Part shown: in pieces, positions 24,001 through 33,000 of the stretch | How positions within the stretch are numbered: the first letter of the stretch is position 1 | Layout: every line of letters begins with the position of its first letter | DNA from: Candidatus Rokuibacteriota bacterium | GTDB lineage: Bacteria > Methylomirabilota > Methylomirabilia > Rokubacteriales > CSP1-6 | Length of the DNA stretch: 64,000 nucleotides | Direction: 5' to 3' | Assembly (NCBI GenBank): GCA_016184305.1 | Contig: JACPCX010000185.1 | Span: forward strand, 1-64,000 | Program-made: the position numbers

Positions 24001-27000
24001 CGCAGCTCTCGCTCGGCTTCATCGACATCACGGCCGAGCGCAACGCCTACGGACGGCAGAGGGAGTCCTTCGAGACGGAGATCGAGGCCGACCTGGGCCA
24101 GGGGAAGGCGGAGATCAAGGCCATCTTCATCCGCGCCCCCAGGATCCGGCGTCTCGGTCCCGGAGTCACGCGGCTCGCCGAATTCCGCGGCGAGTGCGTG
24201 ATGGCGCGCGAGGGCACCGTTCTGGTCGCCGCGTTCCATCCCGAGCTCACGGACGATGCCTCCGCCCACCAATACTTCGCCGGGATGGTTCGCTCCGCGA
24301 CGACCTGAGCGCGTGGCGCGGGGTCCGCCCGGCCGAGCGCGGACCTCGGGTCACATTCCCGGCCAGCCATAACACCCCGTTTTTCCAACCGCAGTACCCT
24401 CTTGACAACCTTGGGGGCATCCGAGGCATAGTGTGGTCGGACCACCCGACCAATGAACGCCCCGTACCAGACCCGCCGGAACCCCGTTCCGGCCTTGGAA
24501 CCCGCCTAGGAGGCCAGCATGGCGCATTTCACGTGTGAGGTCGTCTACAGGGGCATCTTCCAGAAGAACCTGGCCTCCCGCATCTGCCGCGGCATCGTCC
24601 TGTCCGCGCGCAAGGCGGGCCGCTGGGGCATCGCCTTCGGCCGCTACGGCGACAGCCCGCAGCGCAACGGCATCCCGGCCAAGGACTTCGCCATCGTGGC
24701 GGACAGCCAGGAAGAGCTCGAGCAGAACATGGCGCGCTACGAGCCCAAGGAGGTGGACGTCACCATCTGCGTGGATGACACGCTCTCGAAGGGCGTGGAG
24801 TCCTGGGCGTGGTACGGGCTGCAGCCGATCAACCGGCTGACCCTGCCCAACGGCACGCTCCTGATGACCTCGCTCCAGCCGGCGGACGACCTCCTCAGGG
24901 ACATCCACAAGAAGGACGCGCCCTATGTCTTGACGCTGCTCCGGGCCAAGGCGTCCTTCTCGGGGCTCTGGGTATACCGGGAAGACCACACCGAGGCGCG
25001 GATCCTGGGGGCGCTCTCCAGGATCAAGCCCGACTTCCTGTCCCTCGACGCCGTCTGCCAGGCCATCAAGGACGCGGAGTGGGGCTCCGATCTCAAGGTG
25101 GCCTCCGCCCGCAAGGCCCACGAGCGCCTCGAGACCCGGCCCGTCAACATCACGGAGGGCAATCCGGAAACCCCATTCTCCTTCGAGAAGCCGAAGTGGT
25201 GGGAGATGCGGGAGGGCGCGAGCATCCCGGCGATCCCGGTCGGCAAGCCCATGGAAGGCGGCAAGGGCTACATGCCGGAGCGCAATCCGTACTTCAAGAA
25301 GTTCACGACTCGCACCATGCGACCGGTGATCGATTTCGACAAGTGCGTCAAGTGCACGCTGTGCTGGCTCCAGTGCCCGGACTCCTGCTTCGACGTCACC
25401 CCTGACGACCTCTACGACGCCAACATGGAAGCCTGCTGCGGCTGCGGGGTCTGCGAGGCCGTGTGCCCGGCCAAGGAGTGCATCACCATGGTGAGCGAGG
25501 CCGCCTTCGACGACAACGCCAGCCAGTGGGAGATGTGGCGGAAGGGCAAGGACAAGTACCGGACATGGCTCACCGCGAAGGTGAGCGACAAGGCACACGT
25601 GGCGCGCTCGCACGGCTTCCGCTTCCGCGGGCAGTACGAGCAGGAGCTGAAGCAGGATCTGGACACAGGTGGCATCGCGATCACCTCGGGCATCCCCGGC
25701 GAGAACGCCGCGGCGAAGAAGGCGTAGGGACGAGCGAAGCGAGCCGCGAGGCGCGGGCGGGCGACAGCCCGGGCGCCCGCGGCGCAGGGGACAGACGAGC
25801 GAAGCGAGCCGCGAGGCGCTGGCGGGCGACAGCCCGGGTGCCCGCGCCATGGTGACAAGGAGACCACGATGGCTGTCGAGACCAAGACGATCGCAGCGGC
25901 ACCCGGCGACACGGAGATGCTCATCTCCGGGAGCGAGGCCTGCGCGGAGGCGCTGGCGCTGGCGGACATCGACGTCGTCACTGCCTATCCCATCCGCCCG
26001 TATGACACGGTCATGCAGGCCATCGCCAAGAAGATCGCCAACGGCAAGCTCGTGGCCGAGTACATCGTGGCCGAGGGCGAGCACAGCCAGTTCGAGATCG
26101 TCCATGGAGTGCCTGACGGTCACCCCGCCGCTCCGCGTGCCCATGGTCGCCATGGTGGGCAACCGCGCCCTGGACGATCCAGGCGCCTTCGGCGTCGAGC
26201 ACAACGACGCCCTCGTGGTGCGCGACCTCGGGTGGATGCTCATCTGGGTGGATACGGCCCAGGAGATGCTCGACACGGCGCTCCTGGCCTATCGGATCGC
26301 CGAGGACCGGCGGGTGTTCCTGCCCATCGCCATCTCGGCCGATGGCGCCTTCCTCACGCATTCCCAGGCGCTCGTCCAGGTGCCCACCAAGGCCAAGGTG
26401 GACCGCTTCCTGCCGAAGTACGACCGGGGCGACCTGCAGCTTCATCCGGACAACCCCATCACCGTGGCGCCGCAGGCCAACGAGGACTGGGTCATCGAGA
26501 TCCGACGGCAGAACAACGAGGCCATGACCCGCGCCTATACCGTCATCGAGGAGGCCTACGCCGACTTCCGGAAGGTCTTCGGCCGCGGCCCCGCCGACCC
26601 CTGGTTCGAGGAGTACATGACGGCGGACGCCGAGGTCATCCTGATGGGCATGGGGACCATCTCGCTGCCCTTGAAGGTCGGGATCCGCAACATGCGGGCG
26701 CAAGGCAAGAAGGTGGGGCTGATCCGGCCGCGGTGGTTCCGGCCCTTCCCCACGGAGAAGATGGCGGCGGCGCTGTCGCGGGCCGGCGCCATCGGGGTCA
26801 TCGATCGCGATTACTCGTTCGGCTCGCCCTTCGGCTCGGGCGTGGTCGCCAACGAGATCCGGGCCGCCCTCTACAACGCCGACAAACGGCCGCCGCTCCT
26901 CTCCTTCATCGGGGGGCTCGGCGGGCGGGAGGTCACGCTCGAGGACGTCTACAAGACCGCGGACATGTGCTTCGCCGCCGCCACGGCCGGCAAGTCCGAC

Positions 27001-30000: not shown

Positions 30001-33000
30001 CACCTTCGACGGCTTCCCCATGGCCCGGCGCGGGGAAGGGGGACAGGCGCTGACCGCGGCCTTCACGTCGTCCTTCGTCGGCGCGCTCTTCTCCGTGGTC
30101 CTCATCACCCTCTTCGCGCCGCTCCTGGCGGAGGTGGCCCTCAAGTTCGGGCCCCCCGAGTTCTTCGCCATCCAGCTCCTGACCTTCTCGGCGTTCATCG
30201 GCCTGGGGGGCGGCAACCCCATCAAGTCCCTCGTCTCCATCCTCCTCGGCTTCATCCTGGCTTCCGTCGGCCTCGACATCGTCACCGGCGCGCTGCGCCT
30301 CACGTTCGGGGTCACGGAGCTCATGAAGGGCTTCGACTTCATCGTGGCCGTCATCGGGCTGTTCGGGATCGGCGAGATCCTGCTCACCATGGAAGAGGGC
30401 CTCTCCTTCAAGGGCGCGAGCGCCCGGATCAACCCGCGCGTGGTGTGGGAGACCTGGAAAACGCTGCCGCGCTACTGGCGCACGTTCGTCCGCGGCTCCA
30501 TGATCGGGTTCTGGATGGGCTTCAAGCCCGGCGGCGCCACCCCGGCCTCGTTCATGAGTTACGCCTTTGCCAAGCGCTTCTCCCGGCACCCCGAGCGCTT
30601 CGGCAAGGGCGAGATCGAGGGCGTGGTGGCGCCGGAGACGGCGGCGCACGCGGCCGGCGTCGCCGCGATCCTGCCCATGATCACGCTCGGCATCCCCGGC
30701 TCGCCCACGGCAGCGGTCATGCTCGGCGGGCTCATCATCTGGGGCCTCCAGCCGGGCCCCATGCTGTTCAAGGAGAGCCCCGACTTCGTCTGGGGTCTCA
30801 TCGCCAGCATGTACACCGGCAACGTCATCGGCATTGTGATGGTGCTGCTGTTCGTGCCGTTCTTCGCGGCGATCCTGCGCATCCCCTTCGCGATCCTGAC
30901 TCCACTCATCGTCGCCGTGTGCGCCGTCGGGGCCTACTCCGTGCACGGCAGCATGATCGACATCTGGTATATGCTGGTGTTCGGCGTGATCGGCTACGTG
31001 TTCAAGAAGCTCGACTACCCGCTGGCTCCGCTGGTGCTCGCCCTCGTGCTGGGAGACCTGGCCGAGAACGCGCTCCGGCAGAGCCTCATCATGTCGCAGG
31101 GATCGCTGCTCATCTTCCTGAACCGGCCCATCTCTGGCGCCATCACGGCGGTGGCGCTGTTCTTCTTCGCGCTGCCGCTGATCACGCCCTACTGGCGCCG
31201 CCTCCGCGGCCGCGCGGTCGCGCCGGCTCCCAGCGGCCACTGATGCCGGATCACCCGGGGGACCCGTGAGCGTCGATTTCATCGTCGGTGTCCTGAAGAT
31301 CGTCCTGATCGATCTGGCCCTGGCGGGCGACAACGCGCTCGTCATCGCGCTGGCCGTCCGCACCCTGCCGAAGCGGCAGCAGCTCCAGGGGCGGATCTGG
31401 GGGGCGGCGGGGGCCGTGGGCCTGCGCCTGATCTTCATCACGATCATCACGTATCTGCTCCGCATCCCCCTGCTGCAAGTCGTCGGCGGGCTCGCGCTCG
31501 TCTGGATCGCCATCAAGCTCGTGCGCCAGTCGGATGGGAGCGGCGGGGAGGGGCATGTCCGGCACGGCACGACGCTGATCGAGGCCATCTGGATCATCAT
31601 CGTGGCCGACGTGGTGATGAGTCTCGACAACGTCATCGGCGTCGCGGGCGCCGCCGGAGGGAATCTGACGCTGGTGGTCTTCGGAATCGGGCTCTCCATC
31701 CCCATCGTGGTCTGGGGGAGCGGGGTCCTGGCGACCCTCATGAACCGGTATGCGTGGATCATCCTGATCGCGGGGGGGATCCTGGGCGAGGTGGCCGGGA
31801 AGATGATCGTCCACGACGAGTTCGTGGTGCGGCGTGTCGGAGGTGTCCCGGAGCCCGTCGAGTGGGCGCTGCGCCTGGTGCTGGCGGGCGGGATCATGCT
31901 CATCGGGTGGATCGCGGCCCGGCGCCGGGCCGTGGCTCCTGACGCGGGGGCGGCGGGGTGACTGGCGCCGGACGGCCCGCCGACTGGCCCGGCGTCGAGC
32001 CCATCAAGTCCGCGCGGATCTACGAGGAGATCGTCCGCCAGGTCAAGCAGCTCATCGCCGCGGGGAAGCTCAAGTCCGGGGACCGGCTGCCCCCGGAGCG
32101 CGACCTCGCCGAGAAGTTCGTGGTGAGCCGCACCTCGGTGCGGGAGGCCCTCAGGGCGCTCGAGAGCCGGGGCCTCATCGAGATCCGCGCCGGGGACGGC
32201 GCCTTCGTCCGGGACATCTCGGTGGAAACCCTCATCGAGCCCCTGGCTCTCGTGATCCTGCCGCACCGGGAGGCGGTGGGGGAGCTCTTCGAGGCTCGTC
32301 GCCTGCTGGAGCCGGCCATCGCGACGCTGGCCGCGCGCCGCGCCACCCTCGCGGAGATCGCCGAGATGGAGCGAATCCTGGACGCCCAGGGGAAGGAGGT
32401 GGCCGAGGGGCGCACTGGCGTCGCCCAGGACGCGGCCTTCCACGCCGCGCTGGCCGGCAGCGCCCACAACCGCGCCATCAGCCGGATCGTCAACGCCCTC
32501 ATGGATCTGCTGACCCAGAGCCGCGAGGAGTCACTGCAGGCGCCAGGGCGCCCGGCCCGCTCCCATCAGGATCACCTGCGAATCCTGGAGGCGATCCGGC
32601 GCCGGGACGAGATGGCCGCCCATCGGACCGTGCTGGACCACCTCATCGCGGTCGAGGGCCTGGTCATGGAAGCGCAAGGCGCCGTCGCGCGGGCGGGCGA
32701 CGAGCCCAGCCCCGGGAGGAAAACACCCGCGCGCTGACCCCGCCAAGCCCCTGTAAGTGCCTGTAGCGGAAGAATAATCGTTGACATCCCCACTCCCCTC
32801 CCTTAGCATTGACCTTTGCCATCGGAGTCGGGTTCAGGCCCTTCATGGGCCTGTCTTTTTCTTCCGTCATGGGCAGCGAGCAGAGGGAGCGTTGAATGGC
32901 GCAGGCCAGGGCACGCGGACAATCCCGGGCGAAGGGTCCGAAGCGTAGCGCGCGCACGCCAAAGTACGTGTACGGCTTCGCCAACGGGAAGGCGGAGGGC

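Follow-up and report, generated by a model that had tools for sequence, protein, structure and literature searches.

The window, a 64,000-nucleotide stretch of DNA from a Candidatus Rokuibacteriota bacterium, carries an operon in which three oxidoreductase genes lie in the order gamma-delta, alpha, beta, with no additional open reading frame between them, followed by genes for an importer, a membrane protein and a regulator:

24402–24407: TTGACA hexamer, upstream of the predicted operator
24434–24452, forward strand: predicted FadR/GntR operator, a TGGTC-n-GACCA palindrome followed by a direct half-site repeat
24519–25727, forward strand: fused gamma-delta subunit gene (domain III plus a two-[4Fe-4S] ferredoxin domain)
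25729–25846, no strand assigned: intergenic repeat, two 53-nt copies, 96% alike and 65 nt apart
25869–27033, forward strand: alpha subunit gene, in two frames split by a deletion at 26102/26103
27046–28065, forward strand: beta subunit gene (5c4i_C match; NF045792)
28235–29221, forward strand: tctC, binding protein (PF03401)
29261–29722, forward strand: tctB, small membrane subunit (PF07331)
29726–31243, forward strand: tctA, large membrane subunit (PF01970, 514 bits)
31266–31961, forward strand: YjbE/TerC membrane protein (TIGR03717, 208.9 against a cut-off of 134.8)
31958–32737, forward strand: FadR-subfamily GntR regulator (GntR and FCD domains)
32835–32853: terminator-like hairpin, 3′ of the GntR regulator gene

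The consecutive tctC, tctB and tctA genes match PF03401, PF07331 and PF01970, all above cut-off, as a tripartite tricarboxylate transporter does. The enzyme, with three subunits, a fused gamma-delta and three [4Fe-4S] sites, has the make-up of the oxalate oxidoreductase (OOR) of Moorella thermoacetica (PDB 5C4I/5EXD/5EXE; NF045790–NF045792), which we take to be EC 1.2.7.10. OOR was confirmed as the best PDB match of every subunit: 5c4i_B for delta (E 4.6e-17), 5c4i_C for beta (E 2.5e-90) and chain A of 5c4i for the alpha of the same-genus genome G001 (E 9.9e-93). Foldseek also placed 5c4i_A first (TM 0.86). The NCBIfam OOR models NF045790, NF045791 and NF045792 rank first for gamma-delta, alpha and beta, yet all stay under cut-off (82.3 against 230, 363.7 against 500 and 349.8 against 590, respectively). 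In the alignments the cluster cysteines are all conserved across subunits, those of beta falling in line with those of OOR; beta also has the TPP-binding GDGG motif, and gamma-delta also matches Fer4_21.

Active-site residues are partly kept and partly replaced. Alignment to 5c4i_A puts the YPIRP arginine (OOR Arg31) at alpha codon 25995–25997 and the Arg109 equivalent at 26164–26166, whereas the position of Asp116, the switch-loop aspartate of the Moorella type, holds alanine (26185–26187), just as the first-pass annotation had read it. Equivalents of alpha Gln211 and beta Asn143, whose roles in OOR we take as given, are also retained. The glycine-rich loop of gamma domain III has a CoA role; it is absent here, where the gamma N-terminus has YRGIFQK in the place of OOR's ARGVVMN, in agreement with the earlier description of a fused gamma-delta that lacks a GGQG-type loop, and a paralogue in the same genome carries GRGGQG at this point. 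Details of the OOR switch, plug and CoA loops, other than those cited next for Arg31 and Asp116, are general background. Passages of the literature describe Arg31 as the site for the extra negative charge of oxalate and Asp116 as important to the mechanism (PMC5020499), domain III as the place where CoA binds (PMC13768988), and OOR as the sole 2-oxoacid:ferredoxin oxidoreductase (OFOR) that does not require CoA (PMC12337175). CoA independence, as originally proposed, is probable for the present enzyme.

Two further replacements were absent from the earlier annotation. The OOR Pro113 position is aspartate (alpha codon 26176–26178, in the loop R-A-L-D-D-P-G-A-F), and the position of OOR beta Gly145 is likewise aspartate (beta Asp156, in NTDIQ, codon 27511–27513). 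Asp113 together with Ala116 occurs in 120/120 close homologues, and YPIRP in 119 of them. NTDIQ is read in 74 of 80 loci, the remaining six being cut or unread, whereas canonical loci have NTGIQ. GAFG is present in 80/80 loci, a partly circular count that we leave out of the evidence, as the motif was a scan pattern. The gamma-delta subunit carries a clade-specific WAWYG insert and a SGLWVY[KR][DE]DHT segment; its domain III is 23–29% identical to canonical-type gamma sequences and unlike them in the plug region, and alpha is 40–44% identical to canonical types. When an alpha subunit from the clade (P0122, 14 rows) was modelled with AlphaFold, the loop came out disordered, with pLDDT below 50 at 126–142.

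The source annotation names these enzymes 'pyruvate ferredoxin oxidoreductase', and, being nearly core to the order, they would fit a role in central metabolism. The four-subunit PFOR/VOR/phenylglyoxylate dehydrogenase group (Methanosarcina PFOR, PDB 9BT4) has the same fold and the same TPP and Fe-S motifs, and its gene order, C-D-A-B in a passage of PMC13768988, is that found here. However, this group has YPITP, a glycine-rich gamma loop and CoA use where our enzyme has YPIRP and RGIFQK, and it scores below OOR (alpha 203 against 315 bits; beta 210 against 306). The genome moreover has separate OFOR loci on contigs C123, C133 and C114, that on C123 combining YPITP with a GRGGQG gamma subunit, and in the tree the enzyme groups with OOR, outside the YPITP outgroup. 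It is thus highly improbable that the enzyme is a CoA-dependent pyruvate or 2-oxoacid:ferredoxin oxidoreductase of the ordinary kind. The five-subunit POR/OGOR of Aquificae belong to the same superfamily and are described in PMC13768988 as having an epsilon subunit and genes ordered D-E-A-B-C; the present operon has neither and is set apart from them by description, no five-subunit enzyme having been obtained from 17 genomes of another phylum sample (that of G167).

In the same tree, 99 GAF-type rows form a single clade (support 99), joined by a small GNF variant, and the 14 canonical GDF rows are the sister group of the two together; against 23 outgroup rows, the YPIRP rows as a whole have support 100. 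By this tree the GAF-type clade is a monophyletic group whose sister is canonical OOR, in keeping with its first placement next to the Moorella enzyme. Its wide occurrence in Rokubacteriales was also upheld, with carriage in about 70 of 93 family genomes, and further carriers belong to Acidobacteriota, Armatimonadota, Binatia and Gammaproteobacteria. The enzyme occurs in uncultured bacteria of soil and groundwater; neither plasmids nor named cluster members yielded a cultured carrier. Among the papers listed on OOR, on its motifs and switch loop, or on Rokubacteria and oxalate, none was seen to deal with the clade; the Gibson 2016 phylogeny and Pierce 2010 may already place such sequences. Variant and canonical OOR coexist in two genomes (G079 and G084) and lie back to back in locus L123, which hints at different roles.

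The tie to TctCBA, too, withstood examination. Since TctC of the same subfamily follows canonical Asp116 OOR in 5/8 genomes (two others end at a contig edge), the earlier argument, which took Asp116 loss and TctCBA to indicate a non-oxalate substrate, is weakened. TctC of this operon is 64–74% identical to the proteins behind canonical OOR and 53–62% identical to those of oxc/frc clusters, and all of these form one clade (support 97) within a set drawn from one query without broad outgroups. Proteobacterial relatives adjoin oxc or frc in 27 of the 38 loci of at least 6 kb (family calls above cut-off), and one TctC subclade adjoins glcF/gcl/hyi/glxR in place of oxc. Plasmid matches in four regions included one near gcl-hyi-glxR and none adjoining oxc, and a class-wide search for the TctC context returned 1/400. 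This TctC subfamily is linked to oxalate and glyoxylate genes; a literature search combining oxalate, tripartite tricarboxylate and oxalyl-CoA decarboxylase found nothing.

In Acidobacteria, an OxlT-type transporter replaces TctC immediately behind beta at 20 of the 69 informative loci (two score 475 and 509 bits with TIGR04259, cut-off 335), a link that amounts to a single change on the tree; neither transporter type follows beta in 12 of the 69. Both the oxc/frc clusters with TctC and this OxlT further weaken the case against oxalate. OxlT also stands beside canonical OOR (L154, L282 and L283), and a FadD7-like CoA ligase with a PanE-like reductase is found in 6 of 80 loci as well as next to the canonical OOR of L282, so that all three flank both enzyme types in Acidobacteria. 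YjbE/TerC recurs in the cassette, both behind canonical OOR (L149, L151) and at 18 of the 80 TctC loci of proteobacterial type. Canonical-type OOR relatives thus have the importer, YjbE, GntR, OxlT, ligase and PanE-like neighbours in common with the variant, although the Cdc48-like ATPase of the Moorella operon was not seen at the operon head here. The Oxc/Frc clusters of Proteobacteria likewise include the TctCBA subfamily, YjbE/TerC and a GntR regulator, and in places OxlT, the PanE-like reductase and the FadD7-like ligase. They degrade oxalate via oxalyl-CoA and formate, whereas an OFOR stands in their place here. As oxc was not found above cut-off in any of 81 Rokubacteriales relatives or five other carriers, the variant OOR would therefore fill the place of Oxc/Frc. 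According to a passage of PMC12686821, oxalyl-CoA reductase is encoded by panE2.

The predicted operator lies about 85 nt upstream of the gamma-delta gene, and its TGGTC-n-GACCA palindrome is what we take to be the FadR-type consensus. With one mismatch allowed, the motif occurs within 200 nt upstream of gamma-delta in 30/30 loci, against a background of 2%, counted over loci with a gamma-delta identity of 66% or more to this one and leaving aside gntR-headed loci, where start positions are only estimated. The exact palindrome occurs twice in the genome, and a promoter scan called no full promoter upstream of gamma-delta. A GntR regulator was found in 14 of 20 relative loci and in other phyla the operon begins with a homologue; the FadR-subfamily protein is likely the repressor of the operon. 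The RNA runs contained only 5–9% of the sequence words.

Taken together, we favour, with a probability of about 0.72, a reading in which CoA-independent oxalate oxidoreductases come in a second type, served here by a dedicated importer and a repressor of the FadR type: most likely, this groundwater and soil bacterium imports oxalate and oxidises it to CO2 with a sister form of OOR. The FadR-type protein would sit on the GGTCnGACCA site until substrate is present; oxalate would be bound by TctC and imported through TctAB. The Arg31 and Arg109 equivalents would hold the dicarboxylate for attack by TPP and release of CO2, after which two electrons would pass through the three [4Fe-4S] clusters to a ferredoxin encoded outside the operon, with release of the second CO2 and no CoA. 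The carboxylate of OOR's swinging Asp116 is probably replaced by Asp113 of the same loop or by the new beta aspartate, acting together with the rebuilt domain-III plug. A non-oxalate substrate does not follow from Asp116 loss, because the same loop gains an aspartate at 113 and there is no plain loss of a carboxylate. Against this oxalate reading stand the missing Asp116, the three subunit scores under the OOR cut-offs, coexistence with canonical OOR, the OxlT link as one event, the 12 of 69 loci that lack both transporters behind beta, and the TctC subclade with glyoxylate genes.

Several of these points would suit another C2 substrate, which may be glyoxylate. An enzyme that oxidises some other small acid without CoA, glyoxylate (to CO2 and formate) being the most plausible candidate and mesoxalate or oxamate further ones, would accommodate the clade-wide loss of Asp116 and the changes that parallel it in beta and domain III, the coexistence with canonical OOR (G079, G084, L123), the glycolate/glyoxylate genes beside a TctC subclade, and the serine-glyoxylate-type aminotransferase and malate synthase genes upstream in some Acidobacteria. 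It is nevertheless distinctly unlikely: Arg31 is conserved although it is the site for oxalate's extra charge (a passage of PMC5020499), the importer, YjbE, regulator, OxlT, ligase and PanE-like genes are common to canonical OOR, and the glyoxylate genes fit an assimilation arm downstream of oxalyl-CoA reductase.

Alternatively, oxalate could be the substrate of an altered chemistry in which the lack of Asp116 lets the one-carbon TPP intermediate pick up a proton and leave as formate, giving CO2 and formate; the formate would feed OxlT antiport or formate dehydrogenase, and the clusters would serve activation or a side reaction. The OxlT antiporter does adjoin the enzyme in Acidobacteria, though full oxidation yields no formate, a formate dehydrogenase lies two genes off in L112, an frc-like gene lies downstream in L286, and canonical OOR coexists. 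However, every cluster cysteine is conserved, OxlT flanks canonical OOR as well (L154, L282, L283), and Rokubacteriales use the tripartite importer, with oxlT above cut-off in only 1 of 81 relatives, which makes formate release very unlikely. In a broader form, the rebuilt site (Ala116, Asp113, beta Asp156 and the new plug) might split oxalate or glyoxylate to CO2 and formate free of CoA, or be an oxygen-tolerant or CO2-reducing counterpart. Such novel chemistry is rather unlikely; if true, it would explain why some genomes keep the enzyme back to back with a canonical OOR, the two sharing one GntR gene, and a lineage among the commonest in soil and groundwater would gain a new C2/C1 reaction.

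Should the oxalate reading be correct, a large group of organisms that use oxalate has gone unnoticed, and PFOR-based inferences on these taxa need re-examination. Soil oxalate turnover is surveyed by means of oxc, frc, oxdC and oxlT (PMC10192776, which nowhere uses the word 'oxidoreductase'), and a review cautions that surveys based on oxc and frc underestimate oxalotrophy (PMC13409138). A route labelled as pyruvate metabolism in databases would be missed by standard oxalate-gene surveys. Because Asp116 is absent, the clade offers a natural test of the OOR bait-and-switch mechanism, and a likely ligand can be proposed for a large TctC subfamily.

A separate question is whether the alpha gene is intact. 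The frameshifting deletion described earlier is present at 26102/26103, its size being 65 bp and not the 64 first given, and it removes a conserved stretch. Either side of the break is 98–100% identical to the intact alpha of G001. As first suspected, the break is probably an assembly error: contigs of runs X2 and X7 end loose at 26102, continuing with the missing letters as in G001, and among the pieces listed (32 of about 970) no contig bridges the deleted form. A true pseudogene, with the operon dead in this strain and intact in relatives, would be consistent with the loss of conserved sequence, with the mixed relatives in the sequencing runs and with the small share of pieces listed. It is unlikely, given those contigs, the intact remainder of the operon and an internal stop in just 1 of 91 comparable matches.

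The deletion and the spacing of the 53-nt repeats are both 65 in size, a coincidence left without interpretation because the two copies differ and belong to a genome-wide intergenic family. This family gives 38 blastn matches in the genome and one copy in G001, and the pair between the gamma-delta and alpha genes has no operon specificity.

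The operon lies on the forward strand, with genes for the three enzyme subunits followed by importer genes:

24519-25727, forward strand: gamma-delta subunit gene, best solved-structure match 5c4i
25869-27033, forward strand: alpha subunit gene, in two frames; the intact alpha of the same-genus genome G001 best matches 5c4i
27046-28065, forward strand: beta subunit gene, best solved-structure match 5c4i
28235-31243, forward strand: tctC, tctB and tctA, importer genes after beta
after tctA, forward strand: YjbE/TerC gene, then FadR-type GntR gene
after the GntR gene, forward strand: ppdK, DapA-like gene and ilvB

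The structure 5c4i is that of the oxalate oxidoreductase (OOR) of Moorella thermoacetica, whose residue numbers are used here (E 4.6e-17 for gamma-delta, 2.5e-90 for beta and 9.9e-93 for the G001 alpha), and the NCBIfam OOR models rank first for each subunit, each below its cut-off (gamma-delta 82.3/230, alpha 363.7/500, beta 349.8/590). We favour, with a probability of about 0.7, an explanation in which TctCBA would import oxalate and the TPP/Fe-S enzyme would oxidise it to two CO2 without CoA, a ferredoxin encoded elsewhere taking up the electrons and a switch carboxylate being provided from position 113 or from beta. The predicted mode of action resembles that of Moorella OOR, but the enzyme departs from OOR membership in two features, Asp116 and the family cut-offs. 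Conservation in many relatives extends to the flanking genes, with a pdxR-like regulator, a sulfhydrylase and pdxS/T upstream (19839-24308) and ppdK, the DapA-like gene and ilvB downstream (32896-38284).

The two frames of alpha result from a 65-bp deletion at 26102/26103, as aligned with G001. The first-pass annotation had taken this break for a probable artefact of 64 bp; the size is superseded by the alignment, and the artefact is supported by run contigs that carry the missing letters at 26102. In the public groundwater runs, an X2 contig departs from the window at 26102 and reads on into the beginning of the missing stretch; an X7 contig carries the end of that stretch where it joins the window, and no piece bridging the deleted form is present among the 32 contig pieces listed of about 970. 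An assembly error is likely, yet short of proven because the runs are a mixture of related strains. Two tandem copies of a 53-nt intergenic repeat (38 family matches in the source genome; a single copy in G001) occupy 25729-25846; they lie 65 nt apart, a distance that matches the length of the alpha deletion, 250 nt away.

Alignment of alpha with 5c4i_A reveals that YPIRP, Arg109 and Gln211 are retained, and that the OOR loop R109-TLDPPGD116-F reads R-ALDDPGA-F in the window, unchanged in 120/120 closest homologues. The earlier call of Ala at Asp116 is thereby borne out, and a further change, of Pro113 to Asp, is added to it. In beta, Asn143 is retained and Gly145 is replaced by Asp; the resulting NTDIQ is found in 74/80 loci (the remaining six being cut or unread), and NTGIQ in loci of canonical OOR type, which possess Asp116. 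The Gly-rich loop of domain III, which has a role in CoA use, is absent as in OOR; the domain shares just 23-29% identity with canonical-type gamma subunits and carries an insert and a plug-region sequence of its own.

In the OOR literature, the negatively charged substrate is bound by Arg31, which together with Asp116 serves a bait-and-switch mechanism (PMC5020499), and OOR is described as the exception to CoA use (PMC12337175). The missing Asp116 speaks against the favoured reading; cleavage with formate release is a rather remote alternative. As the AlphaFold model of a clade member (best match 5c4i_A, TM 0.86) leaves the switch loop unresolved, we can only infer that the new aspartates, at alpha 113 and in beta, compensate for the loss.

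A search with the NF045791 profile over 151 genomes of the phylum (tallies including the unpublished G012, G078 and G088) passes the cut-off in eight, with GDFG in 8/8, and yields matches at 328-422 bits in 91, as counted from the listing, among them 70/93 other genomes of the window's family and 9/11 of another family, f4; loop motifs were read in part of these 91 sub-cut-off matches. A GTDB genome scan found at least 586 stretches, and the 80 kept stem from Rokubacteria and NC10, Acidobacteriota, Armatimonadota and relatives, Binatia, Gammaproteobacteria and others, with a patchy presence in Acidobacteriota (9/351 genomes, two of these canonical). In a 138-row tree of alpha (LG+G4, with SH-aLRT as the sole support measure and without Moorella itself), where the window stands as L107, identical to the G001 query, the Ala116 or GAF type forms one clade of 99 rows (support 99), with a two-row GNF variant as sister (96); canonical GDF branches next (14 rows, support 100), and all three are set apart from 23 outgroup rows (100). 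The database name of the clade is pyruvate ferredoxin oxidoreductase; given as a function, an ordinary enzyme of that kind is very improbable.

No cultured carrier was found among database records of the clade, and no description of it in a search of literature listings that did not extend to the text of the key OOR phylogenies. P0134 and P0271 represent a third variant, sister to the GAF clade, with FPIRP, loop DDPGNF and Trp replacing the conserved His after the loop. L109, L072, L060 and L110, titled Nitrosocosmicus, Verrucomicrobiia, Vicinamibacterales and Dormiibacterota, nest in Rokubacterial or Acidobacterial subclades; this may reflect mistaken titles, faulty binning or gene transfer. 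Three Acidobacterial genomes (G164, G725, G817; L265, L268-L272) have two GAF-type paralogues each, every paralogue being accompanied by a gntR and an OxlT-type gene of its own.

The gene neighbourhood points to oxalate. DNA past beta is available in 69/80 loci, with TctC next in 37, an OxlT-type MFS protein in 20 and neither in 12; all four OxlT-type proteins tested score above the TIGR04259 cut-off of 335 (459-535 bits), and one of them also barely passes a lactate-transporter model (323/320). Because they form a single Acidobacterial clade nested among Tct-linked loci in the alpha tree, the OxlT loci count as one swap. In six loci a FadD7-like CoA ligase and a PanE-like reductase are also present, and several of these six have a glyoxylate-type aminotransferase and a malate synthase as well; the same ligase, PanE-like gene, GntR and OxlT occur at L282, a canonical OOR locus. 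PanE2 is an oxalyl-CoA reductase (PMC12686821), and we infer that these PanE-like reductases are its orthologues.

Canonical OORs of the phylum are followed by a window-type TctC (64-74% identical) in 5/8 genomes, two of these loci also having YjbE; of the other three genomes, two stop at a contig edge and one is without Tct. The TctC subfamily was followed in 80 metagenomic loci, whose TctCs share 53-62% identity with that of the window. Of the 38 loci that reach 6 kb or more, 27 contain oxc or frc, with representatives passing the family cut-off, 29 oxc, frc or oxlT, two only glycolate/glyoxylate genes and seven none of these. The TctCs of the window, of canonical OOR and of these metagenomic loci form one clade (support 97), in a tree with thin outgroups since the set was drawn from one query. 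The picture is of a single cassette (importer, YjbE and GntR) with a catabolic core that is either Oxc/Frc, canonical OOR or the window's variant. Over the cut-off, oxc occurs in 0/81 relatives and 0/5 other carriers and OxlT in 1/81 relatives; frc was not found in five Acidobacterial-phylum genomes carrying either OOR type.

One TctC subclade accompanies glcF, gcl, hyi and glxR, which counts against oxalate and makes uptake of glyoxylate or glycolate possible; another C2 acid as substrate of the enzyme is unlikely. Also against the oxalate reading, G079 and G084 each retain both enzyme types and L123 has them back to back around one gntR, and this co-retention suggests that the two are not simply redundant. 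In L123 (2852-12271), the canonical alpha is over the cut-off at 582 bits and the ferredoxin part of its operon is fused to a glutamate-synthase-small-subunit-like NAD(P) protein. The canonical operons of the phylum (L149, L151, L153, L154, L155, L158) are headed by an AAA ATPase-like gene, an ORF of some 700-750 aa that precedes gamma, and none was seen in the GAF-type operons examined.

At 24434-24452 the palindrome TGGTC-n-GACCA is followed by a half-site; this motif precedes gamma-delta in 30/30 loci of close relatives (background 2%) and occurs just twice in the source genome. The GntR gene ending the block likely encodes a repressor acting at this predicted operator, since the site resembles FadR-type operators.

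Further genes of related type were noted. An Oxc-like TPP enzyme in 9/81 relatives (L256-L260; about 520-540 bits, cut-off 739, 38% identity), in one case adjoining a CoA-transferase gene, is probably a different acyl-CoA lyase. In G944 (L286:5114-8207), a GAF-type operon is followed by genes for a TPP enzyme (28% to Oxc) and a formyl-CoA-transferase-like protein (59%). In the source genome, a 1697-aa ORF of an NRPS-like cluster (C162:2065-7155) opens with a domain that shares 53% identity with the FadD7-like ligase from oxalate clusters. In Gammaproteobacterial members (L112:6533-17126; L122:7275-8684) the gene immediately upstream encodes an NAD(P)-linked flavoprotein, and in L112 formate dehydrogenase, a NuoEF-like gene and a CitE-like lyase lie downstream on the opposite strand.
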